DNA of 64,000 bases from Myxococcota bacterium. GTDB taxonomy: Bacteria > Myxococcota_A > Polyangia > Nannocystales > Nannocystaceae. The stretch spans positions 128,001-192,000 of the forward strand of contig JBCCHT010000003.1 in assembly GCA_039028615.1 (NCBI GenBank), written 5' to 3'. Below the pieces are notes generated by a model. The model searched no databases, had not been told where the DNA came from, and worked only from the letters and a program-made list of their open reading frames with translations. Shown piece by piece: positions 54,426 through 64,000 of this stretch; within the stretch, counting starts at the first letter, position 1; each line of letters opens with the position of its first letter. The position numbers were made by a program, and so were the translations under genes.

Positions 54426-54995
54426 ATGGACGACGGAGCACTCCTGCAGGCCTGGTGCGACGGCGACGATGCGGCCGGCGACCAGCTGCTGCAGAGCGTC
54501 TTCCCTCGCGTCTACCGGTTTTTGTTCAACAAGCTCGGCGACGACACCAGCGAGGTGCTCCAGCAGACGATGCTGGCCTGCGTGGAGCACCGCGAGCAGA
54601 TGCGGGACTGCGTCAACTTCGACGCGTACCTGCTTCGGATGGCTCGCAACAAGCTCTACGACTTCTTGCGCAAGCGGCATCGCTCGCGCGAGGAGCTGCC
54701 CGGCGAGCTGCCCTCGGTGCAGTCGATGGGCACCTCGCCCGCGAGCCTCATGGGTCGGCAGGCCCGCGAGGCCCAGGTGCTCACTACCCTGCGCTCGCTC
54801 CCGCTCGAGCTCCAAGTCGTGCTCGAGCTGTTCTACTGGAGCGAGCTTTCGACCCGCGAGATCGCCGACGTGATCGAGACGCCCGTGGGTACGGTGAAGA
54901 GTCGGCTCCGACGCGCGCGCGAGCAGTTCGAGGCCAAGCTCGAAGAGCCCGAGGGCGCGGCGTTGCTCGAGCTTCTGTCGACGGTTCGGCCCTGA
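54426..54995 (+). CDS. ECF sigma-70 factor
   Basis: LLQAWCDGD, RFLFNK, QQTMLAC, LELFYW.EL, P.GTVKSRLRRAR. Confidence 0.9.
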   Translation: MDDGALLQAWCDGDDAAGDQLLQSVFPRVYRFLFNKLGDDTSEVLQQTMLACVEHREQMRDCVNFDAYLLRMARNKLYDFLRKRHRSREELPGELPSVQSMGTSPASLMGRQAREAQVLTTLRSLPLELQVVLELFYWSELSTREIADVIETPVGTVKSRLRRAREQFEAKLEEPEGAALLELLSTVRP

Positions 54996-55140
54996 GGCCC
55001 GAGCACTCGCGAAAACGCAGCGGGCGGAGATCTTCCGCTCGCGATTTGTGGCTGCCCGGGTGATCCGCACGGCGCCGGGGGGGAACGGGAGCAACGAGGC
55101 CGGGATCGATCCCGTCGCCTCGTTCTTGCCGGAGCCCGCC

Positions 55141-58100
55141 ATGCACAAGACGATCGCCCTGTTGTTTCCGATATTGACCGCGTGTGCGCTCGATGCCGCC
55201 GCCCCCGTCGAGCTGGTCCCCGAAGATTCGGCTGACCCGCGCGAACCCGAGGCCGGCGACACGCTCGCCGCCGCGCCCGACACCCAGGAGTTTTGTGTGG
55301 CGAACTGCAGCCCGATGGCCGACACCGTGGCCGCGTTCGCCGTACGCAACCAGCAAAGCGTGGGCTGTGCCAACTTCGGCGCCCGCTACTTCAACTACGA
55401 GGATGAACATTTCCGCCGCGCCCAAGACTCTCGTGGCCCCGACTTCAACAGCTCTTTGGAGGACTGCCTCGACGGCTACTACGCCAGCTATCCGATGTGG
55501 TCCAGCGAGGACCAAGAGCGCTTCGGCCCCGTCCCGAACTCGGCGATTCGCTTCCTGAGTTCCAGCTCGATGGTCGAGCCCGTGCGGCTGACCTTCAACG
55601 GCCAGTTCGACGTCCAGGCCTGTAACGTCGAGATCCAGCCCCTCGTCGACGGCGAGCGGTTCGGCAAGCCCTTCATGATCTCCTCGAACGCGCGGCTTCA
55701 GACCGTGGCGTATTCGTGGTTCGTGCCCGTGGGCGAGGGGATGCACACCGCGTCGTTCCAGTGGAGCACGGATGGGTGCCCCGAAGGCAGCGGCCCGACG
55801 CTGCGCAACGTCACCGTGCTCGCCGAAGCGGCGGCCCGTACCGCGGTCGGCGATGCGATGGCATCGACCGCCGTGGACAAGAACCCTCTGTTCGTCTCCC
55901 AGCCGGAAGGCGGGGACTCGGGCTGGGTCGACCTGCCCCTCGACCTCGATCCGCTGGGCATCGTGCTCGAGCAGGCGGGTCCGCTGGCCATCGAGCTGAG
56001 CGGCCTGTGGAAGACTCACGACGAGATGTTCGTCGAGGCTCGCGCCCTGGTCGACGGCATGGTGATCGGCGAGCTGACCCTGGTCGATCAGGATCTGGAC
56101 GAGAGCAGCCCCTTCGTCGGCGAGCTGGCGGTGACCCGCCCCCGCACGGTGACCTTCGTCGACGACTCGGTGTCCGCCGGGCAGCACGACATCGAGGTCC
56201 AGGTACGGATGGTCAACTACGGCAACGATGGCAACAAGGAGTTCGCGCTGGCCGACGCCCACGTCTCGGCGATCGCTCGCAGCTCGCCCCACGTGCCCAT
56301 GGCCGTCGAGAGCTTCGCTCCCGCCACGCCGCTCGACTCGACCACGTGGGTGGAGCTTCCCCAGCCGAACACGACGCTGGTGATGCCCGTGGGCGGTGAG
56401 CTCATCGCGACCGCGACCCTCGACATCAGCCAGGACTATCCCGATCCGGGCGGCATCCCCTACGGGCCCACCGCCAACATCGAGGTCGCGCCCGTGATCG
56501 ACGGGGTGATTCGCGAGGAGCTGGCCGTGCGCTACTCCGGGCCGCGATTCGAGCGGGACAGCAACCAGTGGACCTTCTCCATCAAGGACGTGCCCGCCGA
56601 GCCCAAGTCGGTGGGCCTGGCCTATCGACGCACGGTGGGTGAGCTCGGCACCGTGGTGCTCGAGCGCGGCACGCTGGTGGTGGAAGGGCACGCGTTCGTC
56701 GGCCCGGACCTCGGTCTCGGCCCGCGGATCGGCCACGGGTCGATGCCCAAGCCCGGCCGACCCCCGCGTCGCGACTCTCGGCTCGAGCCGGGCCCCGTGG
56801 GCGAGAACTACCCGCTGCTGGCGGTGCTCTTCGACGACAAGCGCACCACGTGCGACGGTCCCAACCCGGTGGGTCCGGACTTCAACAACGGCCCGTGGGC
56901 GAACTGCGTGGGTGCAGGGCAGCCCAATCACCCCACGGCCACCGCCTTCGACCTGTGGATGCTGCTGTATCGCGATCCGACCAACGTGGCCGGCTACCTG
57001 GAGGCGGCCAACCGGGGCGTCGCCGAGCTGACCGACATCGGCGTCTACGACGTCGCGACCGCCAACGCCCCCGCGCCCGACTCGAGCAACGACTACACCA
57101 TCCAGGGGTGTACCTGCGGGCTGGGGTCCGACCCGCAGTATGTCTCGGCGCGCCAGCGGATCATCGCCGAGGCGATCCTCGGGGCCAAGGACCAGGGCAA
57201 CCTCGACTACTCCGACTTCGACCACAACGGCGACGGCGCGCTGAGTCCCGACGAACTCAATATCTTCGTGGTCACCCCGGAGAGCGACTTCATTACTGGC
57301 TCGCGAGCGCAGGCGATCCCCGCGGCGATCCGGCCGCTGTGCAAGGACTACGACACCACCCCGAGCTGCGATGGATCCGAGATGCTCGTCATCGACGGGG
57401 TGACCTTCGAAAACGTGGTCGTCTGGCGCGGAGACATCTCGGCCCCGCGCAACCTCGAGGACGCCTACATCGCCACGCACGAGCTGCTGCACGTCATCGA
57501 GAGCATGGACGACGCGTACGTCTCGGGGCTGCCCAACTCCGATCCGGGCGTCTTGGACATCATGTCCTCGAACTCCGTGGCGGGGAATGGGCTCGCCGAT
57601 TCGTTCCAGCGGCCGTCGGGGGTCACCGCGCTCGCCGAGGGCTGGGTCGATCCCCTCTATCCCGAGGAGGGCGATGGGCTCTACACGCTCGAGGACGTGG
57701 CGTTCGGCAACCAGGTGATGATCCTGCCGCGCCTCGATGGGCCGACCCGCGAGTACTTCCTGCTCGAGGTGCGCCAGGATCGGCCGCCCACCGTCGACCT
57801 GGACGCGTACGACTACAACCTCAACGACAGCGGCCTTGCGATCTGGCACGTGATCGAGCCGAGCGACGAGTGCGTCGACGACGACTGGAGCGACTGCGAG
57901 GCGACCTTCCCCGAGTTCTGCCCGATGGACGGCTGGAGCTTCTACTCCGACGACAGCTACGCCCGCTACATCGCGCGGATCATTCAGCCCAACCTCACCT
58001 ACGAGACCAACACGATGCGAGGGACGCAGATGACCCCGGAGCTGCGGCTGTGGAGCGCCGCGGGACAGTCGGTGTCCGGCGTCCCCGGTAGCGGCCTCTG

Positions 58101-58248
58101 CCCGGGTGGATCGATCAACGACCAGAGCACGGGGGTGCCCGAGCTGCAGTGGTCGGATGGCAGCCCCGCGCCCTATACCTTGTCGAACTTCGTGTACGAC
58201 CAGACCATGGGCACGGTGAGTTTCGAGCTGCTGGCGCCGAACTTCTAG
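55141..58248 (+). CDS. Large lipoprotein with C-terminal M6 (immune inhibitor A)-like metalloprotease domain
   Basis: ILTAC lipobox; DFDHNGDG, THELLH, DIMS, EYFLLEVRQ, SGLAIWHV. Confidence 0.78.
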   Translation: MHKTIALLFPILTACALDAAAPVELVPEDSADPREPEAGDTLAAAPDTQEFCVANCSPMADTVAAFAVRNQQSVGCANFGARYFNYEDEHFRRAQDSRGPDFNSSLEDCLDGYYASYPMWSSEDQERFGPVPNSAIRFLSSSSMVEPVRLTFNGQFDVQACNVEIQPLVDGERFGKPFMISSNARLQTVAYSWFVPVGEGMHTASFQWSTDGCPEGSGPTLRNVTVLAEAAARTAVGDAMASTAVDKNPLFVSQPEGGDSGWVDLPLDLDPLGIVLEQAGPLAIELSGLWKTHDEMFVEARALVDGMVIGELTLVDQDLDESSPFVGELAVTRPRTVTFVDDSVSAGQHDIEVQVRMVNYGNDGNKEFALADAHVSAIARSSPHVPMAVESFAPATPLDSTTWVELPQPNTTLVMPVGGELIATATLDISQDYPDPGGIPYGPTANIEVAPVIDGVIREELAVRYSGPRFERDSNQWTFSIKDVPAEPKSVGLAYRRTVGELGTVVLERGTLVVEGHAFVGPDLGLGPRIGHGSMPKPGRPPRRDSRLEPGPVGENYPLLAVLFDDKRTTCDGPNPVGPDFNNGPWANCVGAGQPNHPTATAFDLWMLLYRDPTNVAGYLEAANRGVAELTDIGVYDVATANAPAPDSSNDYTIQGCTCGLGSDPQYVSARQRIIAEAILGAKDQGNLDYSDFDHNGDGALSPDELNIFVVTPESDFITGSRAQAIPAAIRPLCKDYDTTPSCDGSEMLVIDGVTFENVVVWRGDISAPRNLEDAYIATHELLHVIESMDDAYVSGLPNSDPGVLDIMSSNSVAGNGLADSFQRPSGVTALAEGWVDPLYPEEGDGLYTLEDVAFGNQVMILPRLDGPTREYFLLEVRQDRPPTVDLDAYDYNLNDSGLAIWHVIEPSDECVDDDWSDCEATFPEFCPMDGWSFYSDDSYARYIARIIQPNLTYETNTMRGTQMTPELRLWSAAGQSVSGVPGSGLCPGGSINDQSTGVPELQWSDGSPAPYTLSNFVYDQTMGTVSFELLAPNF

Positions 58249-58375: not shown

Positions 58376-59518
58376 ATGTCGAAGCTCGACTGGGTCGTCG
58401 TCGGGGGTGGTCCCCACGGGGTCTGTACCGCGCGGGCGCTGCAGGCCACGGGAGCCGACGTGCGCATCGTCGATCCCAGCGGGTCGCTGCTGCATCGCTG
58501 GTCCAGCCGGGCGGAGGCGGTCGCCATGACCTGGATGCGATCGCCGGTCAGCCACCACCTCGACCAGCACCCCACCGAGCTCCACCACTTCTTGCACGGC
58601 CGCGAAAACGCCGACGTGGCGAACTTGGCTCGCCCGTACCTGCGTCCGATGCACGCCGCGTTTCTCCGGCAGACGCAGCACCTCATCGCCCGCGACCGCC
58701 TGCAGGAGGCCGTCGTTGCCGGCCGGGTCGAGTCTCTGCACGAGGACGGAGGCAACCTCGTGGTCGAGGGGCCAGGGGTCTCGCTCCGAACGCGTCGCGT
58801 GCTCGTGGCCACCGGCTCCAACCAAATGCGGATCCCGGACTGGGCGCGACGCCTCCGAAACGAGGGGGCCACCGCCGGTCACGTATTCGAGGCCGACGCC
58901 GAACTCTCGACGGACATCGTCGGCGGAGGCATCTCGGCCGTACAGCGGGCCATCGAGGTCTGGCGGCGGACCAAGGAGACCGTGCGGCTGTGGGTGCGTC
59001 GCCCCATCCAGGTCGCCGAGTTCGACTACGATCAGTCGCTGGCGCGGGCCCGGTTCGTCCGTCGCTGGTCGCGGCAGGACGAGGCGCAGCGGCTGAACTT
59101 CCTGGACAAACACAGCGCCCGAGGGAGCGTGCCTCCCGGGCTGTGGGGGCGCTTGTCCAACGCGATGCGGCGGGGGCGGGTACGCCTCCATCAGGGAGCG
59201 TTGCGAGTCGAGCGACCGGACGCGAGCGGGCGGCTCATCCTCACCGGGGCCGAGGGATCGGTGGAGTCGAACGGGCTGACGTTGGCCACTGGCTTCGAAC
59301 CCGAGGCGATCGGCGGCTGGCTCCGTACGTGCGCCGACCGGCTGGGGCTGGCCGTGCGAGGGGGCCTCCCCCGCCTCGAGGACGACATGCACTGGGGTCG
59401 CGGCGTCTATGTGTGCGGCCCGCTGGCGCGCCTGCGCTTGGGGCCGATCGCGGGCAACCTCGTGGGGGCGCGCTGGGCCGCGTCATTGCTCCCCGGCGTC
59501 CGCATGCAGCCCTACTGA
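58376..59518 (+). CDS. FAD/NAD(P)-binding oxidoreductase (lysine monooxygenase-like fold)
   Basis: VVGGGPHG, MRSPVSHHLD, VATG, VGGGISA, LATGF, LGP.A.NL.GAR. Confidence 0.85.
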   Translation: MSKLDWVVVGGGPHGVCTARALQATGADVRIVDPSGSLLHRWSSRAEAVAMTWMRSPVSHHLDQHPTELHHFLHGRENADVANLARPYLRPMHAAFLRQTQHLIARDRLQEAVVAGRVESLHEDGGNLVVEGPGVSLRTRRVLVATGSNQMRIPDWARRLRNEGATAGHVFEADAELSTDIVGGGISAVQRAIEVWRRTKETVRLWVRRPIQVAEFDYDQSLARARFVRRWSRQDEAQRLNFLDKHSARGSVPPGLWGRLSNAMRRGRVRLHQGALRVERPDASGRLILTGAEGSVESNGLTLATGFEPEAIGGWLRTCADRLGLAVRGGLPRLEDDMHWGRGVYVCGPLARLRLGPIAGNLVGARWAASLLPGVRMQPY

Positions 59519-62218
59519 GGCCGGCTCCGCGTTCTTGGACGCGAGGCGTCGGCACCCGGGCGAGTCGTCGTCGGCACAGGCCGTCAGCGCTCGTCGCCGT
59601 AGCTCGGGCAGGTCCGGGATCTGGGCGCCTGCCGCCTCGGCCTCCACCATGATGCCCACGGCGCGCGCGAGCCGGCCTGCGCTCGGCGAGGGCCCGAGGT
59701 TGTCGAGCGTCGCTCGGAGGTGACGAACGGCCTCGTCGGGTCGCTCGCGTGCCAGCAACAGCTCCGCCAGCTCTCGCTCGGCGCTGGCGCGCTCGCGGTC
59801 GCCGTCGGGCCACACCCGCCGCCCGCTGGAGACCGCCGCCTGCAGGTGGGTCTCGGCGCAGGTCAGCTGTTCGCGATCCAGACAGACTCTGGCCAGCCCT
59901 CGGAGCAGCCGCACGCGAAACTGGTCGTGCACGTCGCCCATGGCGGCCAGGCCTCGCCAGTAGTTGTGCTCTGCGCCCTCGAGGTTGCCGAACAGGTGTT
60001 GGTTGTAGCCGAGGTTGAGGTACGCGGTGGCGGTGCGCGGGCTCAGCCGGCCATAGCCGCGCTCGGACTGCTGCACGGCGGTTTCGAGGTGCTCGATGGT
60101 GCGTTCGGGGTGTCCCTGCTCGCGGGCGATCCGAGCCAGCACCATCGAGATCCTGGCGCGACGCGGATGGGAGGCCCCCAGGGTGCGGATCGTTCGCTCG
60201 TCGAGGCGCCGGGCTTTTTCCAGCGCGACGTCGAACTCGGATGCACCCATGTGGGTTTGGAGCAGGGCGGCGCCGGCCAGCCACGCGAGCTCGTCGAGCT
60301 CGGAGCGGCTCTCGTCGATCTGCGCGAGGATGCCTTCGAAGGTCTCGGTGGCCGCCGCCCACTCGTGGCGCCGCTGCTGAAGCAGGCCCCGCACGTGCTG
60401 CCGGGTGAGGACCTGCGCGTCGTCGGGGTGCCGACGCAAGCCCGCGTCGGCGTGTCGGAGCCACTCTTCGGCTTCGTCGGGGGCCTCGGCGTAGGCGTGC
60501 TGCATGGCCAGCGCATTGGCGTGGCGGGCCAGCTCGCGGCCATCGGTGAGCTCGGCCGACAGGTAGTACGCGGACTCGAACGCGGCGAAGCGACGGGGGT
60601 CGCCCAGCTCTCCCCACGCGATGCCGGCCGCCGCGTAGGCATCGGCCGCGAGCGTGCCCAGCTCGGCCGCGGCGGCTTCGGCTGCGAGCGTCTCCGCGGC
60701 GGCGGCGGTCTGCGCGTAGTGGCCCGCCGCGAGGTCGGCCCGGACGATGGCCAGGCGCTTGCTCAGCGAGCGATGGAGCGGCGAAGCGGAGTCCGCGGGC
60801 ACCGCATCGGAGTCGCACCGCGCGGGCGAGGGCAACGAGCGCACCGCGGCGATGGCCCGGGCCACGGCGGGGGTGTCCGGCGTCTCCAGGCGGGCGAGCA
60901 GGGCGGACAGCGTGCTCAGGCCATCGCGGAGGCACGCGGCGCGGGCATCGAAGCGAGCGTCGTCGATCGATTCGTCCACCCAGCGGGCGCGGCATGTCGC
61001 CAGGTCCTGCTCGACCCAGGCATCGGCGTAGCGCTCCACTTGCCGCTCGATCCGACCGACGAGGGCCGCGGCCCCGTCGGCGTCTGTCGCCTGCAGGCTC
61101 GCCTGCAGCGTGCTCCGTCGCGCGGGACTCCAGACGGTGGCGAACCGAGCCCGGGCCGTGTCTTCGTGACACGTCACGGGCGTGACGCTCGGCGCGGTGG
61201 TCCAGCCCAGGCCCAGCGCACCCGCGGTGACGACGGCGCCCGCGAGCACCCACCATCGGCGGGGCGTAGGGCGTCGCTTCAGCGCTCGTCGCAGCTCCTG
61301 CATCGAGGCGAAGCGGGCGGCGGGGGTGGGCGAAAGGGCGCGACGCAGCGCCCGCGTGAAGGGGGCGGGCACGAGGGAGGACTCGGGCTGCTCCTGCGGT
61401 CGCAGGTCGGGATCCTCGGCGAGATCCAGCGGGCTCACCCCGGCAAAGGGATGCTCCCCGAACACCAGCTCCCATGCCGTCACCGCGAAGCCGAACTGGT
61501 CGCTCGCCGCGTCCACCGGGTCGCCGCGCAGCTGCTCGGGCGACATGTAGCGGGGCGTGCCCGCAATGCGGGTCATCGACATCGAGGGGTGGCTCCAGCC
61601 GGAGACGAGCGAGTCGCCGGGGTTCGCCCCCGCCCGCGCGAGCCCGAAGTCGGCGACGCGAACGCGGCCGTCGTTGCCCACCAACACGTTGGCGGGCTTG
61701 AAGTCGCGGTGGATGAGCCCTCGTTCGTGCGCGGCGGCCAGGCCCGCCGCCGCTTCGTCGAGGATCGTGCACACGCGATCGAAGCGCTCGCGGCCGCCTG
61801 GTGGGTGCTGCTCGGCCCACTGCGCGAGCGTAACCCCGCGGACCAGCTCCATCGCGATCCACAGCTGCTGTTCGTGCACGCCCGTGTCGAAGACCTCGAC
61901 CACGTGCGGGTGGCTCAGCCGTGCCAGCGACCGCGCCTCGCGGAGCTGCGTCGGCGGCCGGCTCGCCTCGCCGTGCTCGGGCGACAAGAGCTTGAGCGCC
62001 ACGGTCCGCCGCAGCTCGCCGTCCTCCGCCTCGAACACCCGCCCGTGGGCGCCTCGCCCCAGCAAGCGCAGCAGCCGAAAACGGCCGATCTGGACGGCGG
62101 AGGGGCGACCGAAGAGCTGCTCGCGGAGCTGGGCCAGCGCGAGCCGAGCGTCGAGCTCGTTCGCGTCAGGGCAGCCCTGCAGGGTTTCCCGCCAGCCGCG
62201 TTCCTCGTCGTCGCTCAC
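59483..62218 (-). CDS. Ser/Thr protein kinase with TM and TPR region
   Basis: GRGAHGRV, VALK, HRDFKPAN, ADFG, GTPRYMSPEQ; GTG 62218 start. Confidence 0.92.
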   Translation of the reverse strand: MSDDEERGWRETLQGCPDANELDARLALAQLREQLFGRPSAVQIGRFRLLRLLGRGAHGRVFEAEDGELRRTVALKLLSPEHGEASRPPTQLREARSLARLSHPHVVEVFDTGVHEQQLWIAMELVRGVTLAQWAEQHPPGGRERFDRVCTILDEAAAGLAAAHERGLIHRDFKPANVLVGNDGRVRVADFGLARAGANPGDSLVSGWSHPSMSMTRIAGTPRYMSPEQLRGDPVDAASDQFGFAVTAWELVFGEHPFAGVSPLDLAEDPDLRPQEQPESSLVPAPFTRALRRALSPTPAARFASMQELRRALKRRPTPRRWWVLAGAVVTAGALGLGWTTAPSVTPVTCHEDTARARFATVWSPARRSTLQASLQATDADGAAALVGRIERQVERYADAWVEQDLATCRARWVDESIDDARFDARAACLRDGLSTLSALLARLETPDTPAVARAIAAVRSLPSPARCDSDAVPADSASPLHRSLSKRLAIVRADLAAGHYAQTAAAAETLAAEAAAAELGTLAADAYAAAGIAWGELGDPRRFAAFESAYYLSAELTDGRELARHANALAMQHAYAEAPDEAEEWLRHADAGLRRHPDDAQVLTRQHVRGLLQQRRHEWAAATETFEGILAQIDESRSELDELAWLAGAALLQTHMGASEFDVALEKARRLDERTIRTLGASHPRRARISMVLARIAREQGHPERTIEHLETAVQQSERGYGRLSPRTATAYLNLGYNQHLFGNLEGAEHNYWRGLAAMGDVHDQFRVRLLRGLARVCLDREQLTCAETHLQAAVSSGRRVWPDGDRERASAERELAELLLARERPDEAVRHLRATLDNLGPSPSAGRLARAVGIMVEAEAAGAQIPDLPELRRRALTACADDDSPGCRRLASKNAEPASVGLHADAGEQ

Positions 62219-62353: not shown

Positions 62354-63118
62354 ATGAGCGAAGCCGACCTCTACCACGCCCTCGTCATGCTGCTGTTCGC
62401 CATCGCGGGGGTGGTCTTTGCCGTGCTCGGCTTGGTCAGCGCGCCCTATGGGCGTCACGCTCGGCAGGGCTGGGGCCCTCGCGTGGGCGAGCGCGTGGCG
62501 TGGATCGTGATGGAGGCGCCGTCGTCGTTGCTCTTCGCGTGGATCTTCTTCCAGGGTCCGCGCGCCTTCGATCCGGTGCCGCTGGTCATGCTGGGCCTGT
62601 GGCAGGCGCACTACCTGCACCGCGCGTTCATCTACCCGCTTCGCAAGCGCAGCCGACCCGGCCAGACGATGCCCCTGGTGGTCATGCTGATGGCGTTGGT
62701 GTTCAACGTCCTCAACAGCTACCTCAACGCGCGGTGGCTGTCGGCGATGGGGCCCGAGTATGCGCTGCGGTGGTTGCTGACCTTCCGCTTCCTGTACGGG
62801 GCGATGCTGTTCATCACCGGGTTCGTCATCAATCGCTGGGCCGACGCTCGGCTCCGCACGCTGCGGCGCCCGGGAGAGAGCGGCTACTCGATCCCCCGCG
62901 GGGGCTTGTTCAACGAGATCTCGTGCCCGAACTACTTCGGTGAGCTCGTGCAGTGGGTGGGCTGGGCTCTGCTCACCTGGTCGCCGGCCGGCATGGCCTT
63001 CGCCGCGTTCACGGCCGCCAACCTGGTGCCGCGGGCGGTGACCCATCACCGTTGGTACGAGCGCACCTTTCCCGGCTACCCGCGGCGTCGCAAAGCGATC
63101 ATCCCTTACGTGCTGTGA
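62354..63118 (+). CDS. 3-oxo-5-alpha-steroid 4-dehydrogenase (steroid 5-alpha-reductase) family protein
   Basis: APYGRH, AW.VME.PS, HY..RAFIYP, YSIPRGGLF..ISCPNYFGE, NLVPRA..HH.WY, RKAIIPY. Confidence 0.92.
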   Translation: MSEADLYHALVMLLFAIAGVVFAVLGLVSAPYGRHARQGWGPRVGERVAWIVMEAPSSLLFAWIFFQGPRAFDPVPLVMLGLWQAHYLHRAFIYPLRKRSRPGQTMPLVVMLMALVFNVLNSYLNARWLSAMGPEYALRWLLTFRFLYGAMLFITGFVINRWADARLRTLRRPGESGYSIPRGGLFNEISCPNYFGELVQWVGWALLTWSPAGMAFAAFTAANLVPRAVTHHRWYERTFPGYPRRRKAIIPYVL

Positions 63119-63265
63119 CCCCGTCGGCCGGTCTGAGGGCCGGTCCGTTCATTTTGGGCCGAGCGTTTTGCATCTTTTTGAGCAGCGCACGTCCTAGGTG
63201 AACGACGGGAGCACACGCGCTCCCGGGATCGCCCTGTGTCCGCCGTCATGGCGCCGCCACAGGGG

Positions 63266-63279
63266 TGACATCGATGTCA
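63266..63279. promoter_or_regulatory. Candidate upstream activating sequence for a sigma54 enhancer-binding protein
   Basis: Perfect palindrome TGACATCGATGTCA ~120-130 bp upstream of the -24 element. Confidence 0.5.
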
Positions 63280-63395
63280 GGGACTGACGTCCGTGCGGGG
63301 GCCAAGTCGGACTTTTGCGTCATGCTGCTAGGGCAGAACGCGGCGATCTCGCGCCTGTGACGAAATTTCTTCAATGATCTCAGGTGGCGACAGGA

Positions 63396-63411
63396 TGGCA
63401 CGGTGGCTGCA
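63396..63411 (+). promoter_or_regulatory. Sigma54 (-24/-12) promoter
   Basis: TGGCAC-GGTGG-CTGCA matches TGGCAC-N5-TTGCW with invariant GG and GC correctly spaced. Confidence 0.72.
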
Positions 63412-63421
63412 ACTATTGTCG

Positions 63422-63997
63422 AGCGTCGGCGGGGTCGGTCCCAACCTCAACCTCGCAGGCCTCTTACTCTGGCTTGTTCTTGCATCCCTTCCTTTAGCTT
63501 ACTTGCTCCTTAGTTTGATTCGCTTGGCTTAGTGTCTGACTTGGACTGTCACTTTTCTCGACTTGGCTTAACCGACCGTCCTTGGCTTACCTGTTCGACC
63601 CCTTGGCTTGATCGATTCTCTTTGCGCGTCGCTTCGTTTCGTCCCCTTTGCGTACGCCTTGATGTCGCGCCGTTGGCCCTCGCCCCCTGAGGGCCCGGCT
63701 CGCGACTGCGGGCCCGGTGGAACCTGTGCACGTTCCCTGCAGGCATCCCCGATTCCCGGCCCGCCACGATTTCCCTCTGTTAGTCCGTTAGTACTTAGAC
63801 TTGACTTGGTTTGATTCTGGTCGCGTTGGAAAAACTAGTAGTAGTGCGTTAGTCGAACGATAGTTGCCCCACTTAGTCTTAGCTTAGGAATACTCGACGT
63901 TTCGAGTCGTCGTCCCGGAATCGGTGCCCCGGGACTTCCACTCCTTGGTCCGTCACTCCGATTCGAAAGCCCGGGCTCATTCGAGCCCGGGCTTTCG
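63422..63997 (+). ncRNA. Candidate ~575-nt repeat-rich non-coding RNA
   Basis: No credible ORF; lies between sigma54 promoter and terminator; 10 TTAG and 4 CTTGGCTT motifs in U-rich tracts separated by GC-rich hairpins. Confidence 0.6.
63964..63997 (+). terminator. Terminator-like hairpin
   Basis: Perfect 15-bp stem CGAAAGCCCGGGCTC-ATTC-GAGCCCGGGCTTTCG; downstream tract cut by the window end. Confidence 0.75.
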
Positions 63998-64000
63998 TGT

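Follow-up and report, generated by a model that had tools for sequence, protein, structure and literature searches.

Near the end of the 64,000-nucleotide (nt) stretch of DNA analyzed here (the window, from a Myxococcota bacterium of the family Nannocystaceae), an intergenic region is predicted to encode a non-coding RNA (ncRNA) of ~578 nt (63422..63999, + strand). The prediction draws on the lack of a gene call, the lack of a conserved open reading frame (ORF) and the existence of orthologs; the start was placed by its spacing from the -24/-12 promoter and the end by the terminator. Sequence comparison supports a real, conserved ncRNA family in which an enhancer pair, a sigma54 box, a non-coding repeat body and a terminator occur together at two loci, namely locus A (the present unit and its orthologs) and locus B (a paralog beside argC). 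The RNA is very probably transcribed. It is proposed to be a Nannocystaceae-specific, sigma54-activated sponge that titrates a protein, a reading that appears probable and in which the RNA is wired like CrcZ with a new motif.

Organization of the Locus

The unit is preceded by a 3-oxo-5-alpha-steroid 4-dehydrogenase-like gene (62354..63118, + strand; an ORF matching Pfam PF02544 with E 4e-54), which lies outside the RNA unit and is also the upstream neighbor in same-genus orthologs. Between 63118 and ~64114-64156 no gene was called by a gene caller run on the whole genome (12.3 Mb, 96.7% complete; 9352 genes, 87% coding), and none of the ORFs is shared among the 11 bodies examined. An earlier sequence-only reading of this DNA had described a complete transcription-unit layout with no gene in it, and that description holds. 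The whole unit is single-copy at the DNA level in the source genome, where a lipoprotein-like gene on the same strand begins ~115-160 nt past the final hairpin. A 68-codon frame with a TTG start also exists in the locus.

The unit opens with enhancer site 1, a GACA-N4-TGTC palindrome (63266..63279, unstranded) that is nearly invariant among 7 A orthologs and is presumably bound by a sigma54 enhancer-binding protein. An imperfect second copy, enhancer site 2 (63308..63323, + strand), lies four turns of the helix (~44 bp) from the first; the earlier reading overlooked it, and it was found by reading the orthologs. These sites are followed by an AT-rich spacer (63362..63381, + strand), a possible IHF bend site that is weak at this locus, and by a sequence match to the sigma54 -24/-12 promoter (63396..63411, + strand). 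The palindrome at 63266 and the sigma54 box at 63396 stand exactly where they had first been placed.

The predicted transcript, whose features all lie on the + strand, begins with a stem-loop in the centroid fold (63423..63456), in the place of which orthologs carry a short GUCC..GGAC hairpin, as judged by eye. By motif count, the 5' repeat cluster (63469..63611) holds seven YURRCUU and nine CYURR motifs, including four CUUGGCUU. It also holds a conserved nonamer, GACUGUCAC (63544..63552), found in 5/15 A-type RNAs. A GC-rich stem-loop core (63665..63765) appears dispensable, being absent or different in orthologs, and separates this cluster from a 3' repeat cluster (63780..63887, by motif count), here mostly of a UUAG variant. 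Near the 3' end are a 6-bp hairpin (63892..63907), a hairpin (63912..63935) whose stem covaries among 7 sequences of this genus and whose UCGGUG loop is invariant in them, and a UGGUC-containing element (63946..63956) that falls within the terminator loop in B-type RNAs. The unit closes with a perfect 15-bp hairpin (63964..63997), an intrinsic terminator that is probably bidirectional, judging from its sequence and from the convergent NUDIX gene in 24 loci. The three hairpins are directly readable in the sequence, as had been noted. The body was also described as T-rich and A-poor: the first part stands (30% T(U) versus 16% in the window), and the second is overstated because A makes up 13% versus 15%.

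Conservation at Two Loci

The earlier reading had proposed looking for the unit in relatives, and BLAST together with reading of the loci finds it kept across the Nannocystaceae. By BLAST, the promoter and/or terminator is detected in 5/5 same-genus genomes and in 1/35 other relatives, and the full unit is present in Paraliomyxa miuraensis, Enhygromyxa salina and Nannocystis sp. Locus A adjoins a NUDIX gene that occurs in 30/73 family genomes; beside it the unit is present in 26 of the 30, missing in three, and in one the flanking DNA is absent. In many genomes locus B lies divergent to argC, or to an arg gene near it, and has a convergent unknown gene on its other side. The source genome itself carries this paralog (L138; C5:35619-35130, - strand, the unit itself being placed at about 35460-35130), divergent from argC, and an RRM gene lies ~8 kb away (C5:26802-27014). 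A third RNA copy in genome G052 (L015) lies near a phoU-like gene, named from a frame read by eye.

In total, 57 bodies were cut from predicted start to terminator with ends set by hand: 15 A, a further 10 A of one genus (G-rich), 31 B and the one third copy. Locus A thus contributes 25 bodies and locus B 31; L043 was left out because its contig ends there. The bodies span 214-598 nt and are unalignable between the conserved promoter, enhancer pair and terminator. A loose 3'-end pattern was rejected as a marker of the family, matching 72/73 genomes mostly by chance, and served only to choose six loci.

Conservation of the sigma54 promoter with its paired enhancer across the family is strongly supported by sequence. 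All 39 family units (duplicates removed) have a sigma54-like box scoring 16-19, compared with 11-15 for 16 non-family matches of the enhancer pattern, on an ad hoc score built from the sigma54 consensus. The distance from enhancer to box in the 39 units is 120-125, 129-136 or 140-144 bp, in steps of about one helical turn. A word matching an IHF-like consensus was found ahead of the box in 17/39 units, all B-type, and not in the present one. The strict two-site pattern matches 30/73 family genomes with 0 matches for a reversed-pattern control, and a relaxed pattern 64/73 with control matches in 10, some of its matches lying in coding DNA. Of 401 genomes sampled from the phylum, another relaxed pattern picked out five, three inside the family and two outside it, and when each species was represented by one genome there were 55 matches. 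None of the 30 enhancer-binding-protein candidates of the source genome adjoins A or B there. Extra enhancer pairs also occur, with three pairs in G051 and G052, and G042 has a duplicated A-type enhancer.

Repeats of the RNA Body

On sequence evidence, CYURR/YURRCUU repeats are the only universal feature of the bodies. In the present unit, CTTGGCTT occurs four times at exactly the positions first noted (63523, 63562, 63581 and 63602), against two occurrences elsewhere on the window + strand and 0.014 per kb per strand genome-wide. YURRCUU occurs 9 times versus 0.5 expected, and the 5' cluster is the densest of its kind in the 12.3-Mb genome (7 in 300 nt). YURRCUU reaches 103 versus 9.5 expected in the 15 A RNAs and 228 versus 26 in the 31 B RNAs, exceeding the 95th percentile of each sequence's own shuffles in 15/15 and 30/31, respectively; CYURR passes its own-shuffle threshold in the same numbers (15/15 A, 30/31 B). 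Since related genomes are not independent, the repeat z-scores are overstated; the per-sequence counts do not depend on kinship. CYUR units are most often spaced 5 nt apart (245 cases).

The repeats are strand-specific, and they begin after the predicted start and end before the terminator at two unlinked loci in most genera. Ranked by YURRCUU density across the genome, the top three clusters are loci A and B and a stretch on the opposite strand of a Lys/Ala-rich gene; once clusters antisense to genes are set aside, A and B themselves are the two densest. Other dense regions were rejected as paralogs: a region of contig C1 dense in TTAG consists of AT-rich coding DNA, and the remaining CTTGG-dense regions lie on the strand opposite Lys/Pro/Ala-rich genes. 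Growth of the bodies proceeds through tandem copies of the repeat unit (L031, L033, L150).

The sequence-only reading had also singled out TTAG. Its ten copies in the body and its rarity elsewhere (9 in the other 63.4 kb of + strand) were correctly noted, and dinucleotide shuffles would give just 2.0-2.4 in the body. UUAG is, however, a local variant, because it is above chance in only 5/15 A-type and 8/31 B-type RNAs; it is absent from two of the four same-genus orthologs counted. The expectation that the motifs would be conserved in relatives is thus borne out for the repeats in the form CYURR/YURRCUU and fails for UUAG. The further statement that the motifs are neither GGA nor AANAANAA is correct. 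GGA is depleted (57 versus 85 expected in A, 87 versus 146 in B) and is also below expectation in the GUUGG-type RNAs, and AANAANAA occurs 0 times in all 38 bodies counted.

The ten G-rich A orthologs of one genus (L034, L036, L037, L040, L070, L161, L163, L165, L167, L177) have GGUUGG/GGUAGG repeats behind the same promoter. UUGG is enriched in them (77 versus 22 expected, 10/10 above shuffles). In the same genus the B paralog keeps CUUGGCUU. The replacement of CYURR by GUUGG implies either that the partner differs or that only UUGG matters; a partner switch or a G-quadruplex-like element is possible.

Fold of the RNA

The whole fold of this RNA is unremarkable (z -1.62, with 7/100 shuffles as stable), and bodies without their terminator fold like shuffles, with median z of -0.2, 0.75 and 0.0 in three sets (12 shuffles each). 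The repeats had been described as low-structure clusters around a GC-rich core. The clusters are indeed more open than the core, with local unpaired probabilities of ~0.43-0.62 versus 0.30, but are only moderately unpaired. Motif bases are predicted to be more unpaired than the rest in 34/38 bodies (0.54 versus 0.47). RNAalifold gave no stable consensus for B 3' ends because the stems were misaligned. A run of at least 6 G stands right before the terminator in 18/31 B RNAs (e.g., L008, L012, L014, L026) and is able to form a small alternative hairpin overlapping the terminator 5' arm.

A Candidate Regulon

The enhancer with a sigma54 box is also found ahead of exported or lipoprotein genes in the source genome and would define a small sigma54 regulon. 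The C9 gene has both enhancer sites, the C7, C22 and C35 genes have one, and the C13 gene has closer sites with a non-canonical box. Of the C9-family loci that were read, counting the C9 gene itself, 9/30 have enhancer and box upstream; a search of 5 relatives for the C35 lipoprotein gave no match. The 13 exported-protein genes with enhancer plus sigma54 box contain on average 1.31 CUURR within their initial 110 nt, and the corresponding mean for 1039 start regions of lipoprotein genes is 0.28 (p 8.5e-5, with four patterns tried). A first genome-wide leader test gave 93 sense versus 28 antisense, a result inflated by signal-peptide coding sequence.

The C9 family (C9:562-1584, - strand) comprises multi-copy, acidic, Cys-containing lipoproteins with a weak EF-hand match that occur in 62 other genomes. 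Its genes often lie under a sigma54 promoter with the same enhancer, and several start codons fall within a few bases of the predicted transcription start, as in leaderless sigma54 mRNAs.

The window and the source genome have further features outside these subjects. A Ser/Thr kinase with TPR-like repeats (59483-62218, - strand) and, at 54426-58248 (+ strand), an extracytoplasmic function (ECF) sigma factor, after which comes a 1060-aa secreted protein carrying a HELLH metalloprotease-like motif, were recognized by eye, as were foreign-looking genes (integrase-like, pentapeptide-repeat, FAD-dependent) in an AT-rich island at ~168800-190400 of contig C1. Intergenic tandem repeats with units of several tens of bases occur at 91-300 of contig C52 and ~60 kb into C47 (minus strand).

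Candidate Protein Partners

The suggested partner of the RNA was an RRM- or cold-shock-type protein. RRM proteins survive as the best guess, being present in 72/73 family genomes, with six in the source genome; four of the six have long Gly/Arg tails rich in RGG/GGY. A cold-shock protein is an unlikely partner: its domain has a patchy distribution in the family (25/73 genomes) and was not found in the source genome (96.7% complete; controls positive). Under the same conditions TRAP and HutP were not found there, nor was Hfq (PF17209; control positive in 5/14), and the Rho RNA-binding domain (PF07497) was found in 0/73 family genomes (control positive in 9/14). CsrA has one copy in the source genome and occurs in 63/73 family genomes; it was not found in six RNA-carrying genomes. 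By elimination and analogy, an RRM partner has a little less than an even chance. The next candidates are ribosomal protein S1 paralogs, the source genome having 16 S1 domains.

The RRM protein Rbp3 of Synechocystis is reported to have predicted UUNGN sites (UUAGG, UUCGG, UUGGU), one of them supported by mutation (PMC12232666). UUNG is enriched in sum in all three sets of the present RNAs. With no Rho found, no Hfq found here, patchy cold-shock proteins and several RRMs, the RNA-binding toolkit of these bacteria resembles the cyanobacterial one; a literature search on this point turned up nothing of relevance. The leaders of the four glycine-rich RRM genes (L096-L099) are purine-rich and U-poor with recurring ACGAGA/GACGAA, the opposite of the ncRNA composition. 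The csrA gene (C44:13342-13491, - strand; L102) stands directly after the gene of a Fis-type helix-turn-helix regulator and before one that by eye resembles fliW.

Proposed Titration and Its Alternatives

In the proposed mechanism, an enhancer-binding protein on the two GACA-N4-YGTC sites would activate sigma54 polymerase at 63396, a step strongly suggested by conservation and phasing. A ~580-nt untranslated RNA ending at the hairpin would follow, and its 18 CYURR units, many of which stand 5 nt apart in pairs that read YURRCUU, could bind many copies of a protein; the repeats are taken as protein-binding sites because they are the only universal feature. Titration of a single-stranded-RNA-binding protein is probable to the same degree as the sponge reading as a whole. 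The partner would most likely be a glycine-rich single-RRM protein. Its capture may release mRNAs whose starts bear the motif, including those of lipoprotein genes that share the enhancer, and the paralog beside argC may act redundantly in the same role. This release, which would close a feed-forward loop like that of CbrB and CrcZ, is the weakest step, and for the lipoprotein mRNAs the loop is offered tentatively.

Several observations weigh against this mechanism. The motifs are unpaired to no more than a modest extent, and unlike those of CsrB they are not seen to occupy hairpin loops. Among single RNAs of the A, GUUGG-type and B sets, UUNG rises above chance in only 5/15, 4/10 and 17/31, respectively, and in ten A orthologs, all from one genus, GUUGG takes the place of CYURR (CYURR 17 versus 10 expected). 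The ubiquity of RRM proteins is not specific evidence, and the motif was not found in RRM gene leaders, giving no sign of autoregulation. Homology among 10 of the 13 regulon genes means that they are not independent, and several were picked out by eye; four lack CUURR and one has a non-canonical promoter. Stricter genome-wide leader tests of YURRCUU were weak (52 versus 31, p 0.03; 64 versus 29, p 4e-4), and UGGCUU, CUUGG and CUUAG showed no enrichment in them.

Titration has to be weighed against other roles. Unlikely, though the likeliest of these, is a precursor of a short base-pairing small RNA, trimmed like Pxr-XL to Pxr-S, in which the repeats would be nuclease or chaperone sites and a 3' piece would pair through UCGGUG/UGGUC. 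The invariant loop on a covarying stem in this genus fits such a role, one of the seven sequences being changed on both sides at 6/7 stem pairs, and Hfq-independent pairing of Pxr is reported in M. xanthus (bioRxiv 10.1101/2025.09.11.675593). UCGGUG lies within the last 150 nt of 25/31 B RNAs, where it is predicted to be paired (unpaired probability 0.2), but of only 6/15 A and 2/10 GUUGG-type RNAs. GGUC occurs within the last 60 nt of 12/15 A and 30/31 B RNAs, in the latter within the terminator loop and predicted unpaired. Around start codons the complement of UCGGUG is not enriched (96 versus 104) and that of CUUGGCUU is depleted (4 versus 16), counts that would still accommodate a few targets.

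An architectural RNA, whose repeats nucleate a condensate with the Gly/Arg/Tyr-rich RRM tails and thereby store or localize exported-protein mRNAs, is improbable. The RGG/GGY-rich tails on four of the six RRM proteins here and a long, multivalent RNA no more folded than shuffles (median z ~0) would suit it, as would the link of Rbp3 to mRNA localization at membranes (PMC12232666). Nothing separates such a role from plain titration, however, and some orthologs are merely ~215-260 nt long.

Unalignable bodies that expand by tandem repeats could also be a functionless, slippage-prone spacer between a real promoter and terminator, or repeats acting as DNA. This is very improbable given the same strand-specific motif at two unlinked loci and in most genera, confined between start and terminator. 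Smaller still is the chance that the RNA titrates CsrA, a cold-shock protein, Rho, Hfq, TRAP or HutP. In favor are the wide occurrence of CsrA in the family, a 5-nt period like that of TRAP/HutP sites and a pyrimidine richness like that of Rho sites, but the depletion of GGA and the distribution of the other proteins given above speak against all six. Finally, a 5' leader or attenuator of the next gene, a possibility named in the earlier reading and suggested by the lipoprotein-like gene beyond the hairpin, is largely ruled out by the NUDIX gene converging directly on the terminator in 24 orthologous loci and by the convergent gene at B, and the small-protein gene that the TTG-start frame might represent is scarcely credible with no ORF shared and a 5-nt repeat spacing that breaks the reading frame.

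Implications of a Probable Protein-Titrating RNA Pair

Known sponge RNAs target very few proteins (CsrA/RsmA, Hfq/Crc, RapZ). It is possible, if doubtful, that the present RNA is the first case in bacteria of RRM proteins being captured by a sponge or architectural RNA. Were this so, a single sigma54 activator would induce a pair of multivalent RNAs to which glycine-rich RRM proteins bind, possibly in a condensate, and would thereby switch the translation or localization of exported-lipoprotein mRNAs in a family apparently without Rho and Hfq and often without cold-shock proteins; in one genus, one of the two copies has altered its motif. A family-wide RNA pair with a new motif points to an unrecognized global post-transcriptional regulator in myxobacteria. 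As a bait, an RNA of defined repeats offers a direct handle on what bacterial RRM proteins recognize and how they are controlled, and cultured family members exist in Paraliomyxa miuraensis and Enhygromyxa salina.

Comparison with Known Regulatory RNAs

Rfam 15 scans of window positions 62500-64000 and 28 homolog loci (16 + 12) gave no family at the gathering threshold, including 6S, tmRNA, RNase P, SRP and riboswitches, and in the window no score came close to it. The absence of a known family, for which an Rfam scan had been suggested, is thereby borne out. No published title or abstract describing this RNA was found in a search without most subscription papers, and a survey of M. xanthus ncRNAs has reportedly been published. 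The RNA family is likely to be novel; its description as an undescribed myxobacterial ncRNA agrees with these results and with the conserved sigma54 promoter and enhancer.

Pxr, a myxobacterial ncRNA with a sigma54 promoter and an upstream enhancer region (PMC5568312, PMC5684412), shares these traits with the present unit. Pxr (RF01812, Cystobacterineae) is ~110 nt long with three stem-loops and CYURR 0-1, and it lies next to pxrR. The present RNA has as neighbors a steroid reductase-like and a NUDIX gene (A) or argC and an unknown gene (B), and is not downstream of pxrK-pxrR. Ten pxr loci were retrieved with a published primer, seven of which yielded PxrR; their promoters lack the GACA-N4-YGTC enhancer. 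The RF01812 model has no match in the window or homolog loci and scores 114-129 bits on pxr loci (positive control, 5/5 over the cut-off), in agreement with the lack of resemblance first noted. A Pxr relative, suspected from the B-type G-run, was excluded by primer tables, the ten pxr loci and Rfam. PxrR has no clear ortholog in the source genome, the best matches being generic and 43-52% identical.

CsrB, CsrC, RsmY and RsmZ are long, poorly alignable RNAs in which conservation resides in a short motif repeated many times. The present RNA is likewise unalignable with many short-motif copies, and its host has CsrA. Unlike CsrB/RsmZ, it has a sigma54 promoter and motifs outside a series of hairpin loops, and the depletion of GGA shows that it is not CsrB-like. 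The best Rfam match of the CsrB clan, RsmW, scores 18 bits (cut-off 52) at a position upstream of the promoter.

FopS and GibS of Bacteroides are paralogous ncRNAs bound by the single-RRM protein RbpB in a host with no working Hfq (PMC11697453). The present RNAs are also paralogous, in a host where Hfq was not found, and their RRM partner is only a candidate. FopS is described as base-pairing via a shared seed, and RbpB as titrating RNA rather than the reverse (PMC11697453); FopS and GibS are not tandem-repeat RNAs and are not reported to be sigma54-driven, unlike the present RNA. With Rbp3 of Synechocystis the likeness lies in an RRM preference for single-stranded U-rich pentamers (PMC12232666).

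CrcZ and CrcY of the Pseudomonadaceae are CbrB- and sigma54-driven sponges for Hfq/Crc, whose activator also drives protein genes (PMC8871633). The present RNA differs in lacking the A-rich AANAANAA and having pyrimidine-rich CYURR repeats, in a host of a different phylum with no Hfq found and no adjacent activator gene. Its sigma54 promoter has upstream activator sites as in CrcZ, but of a different sequence. What the two systems appear to share, here as read from sequence, is a stand-alone sigma54 ncRNA, an enhancer-binding activator that would also drive protein genes, and redundant paralogs.
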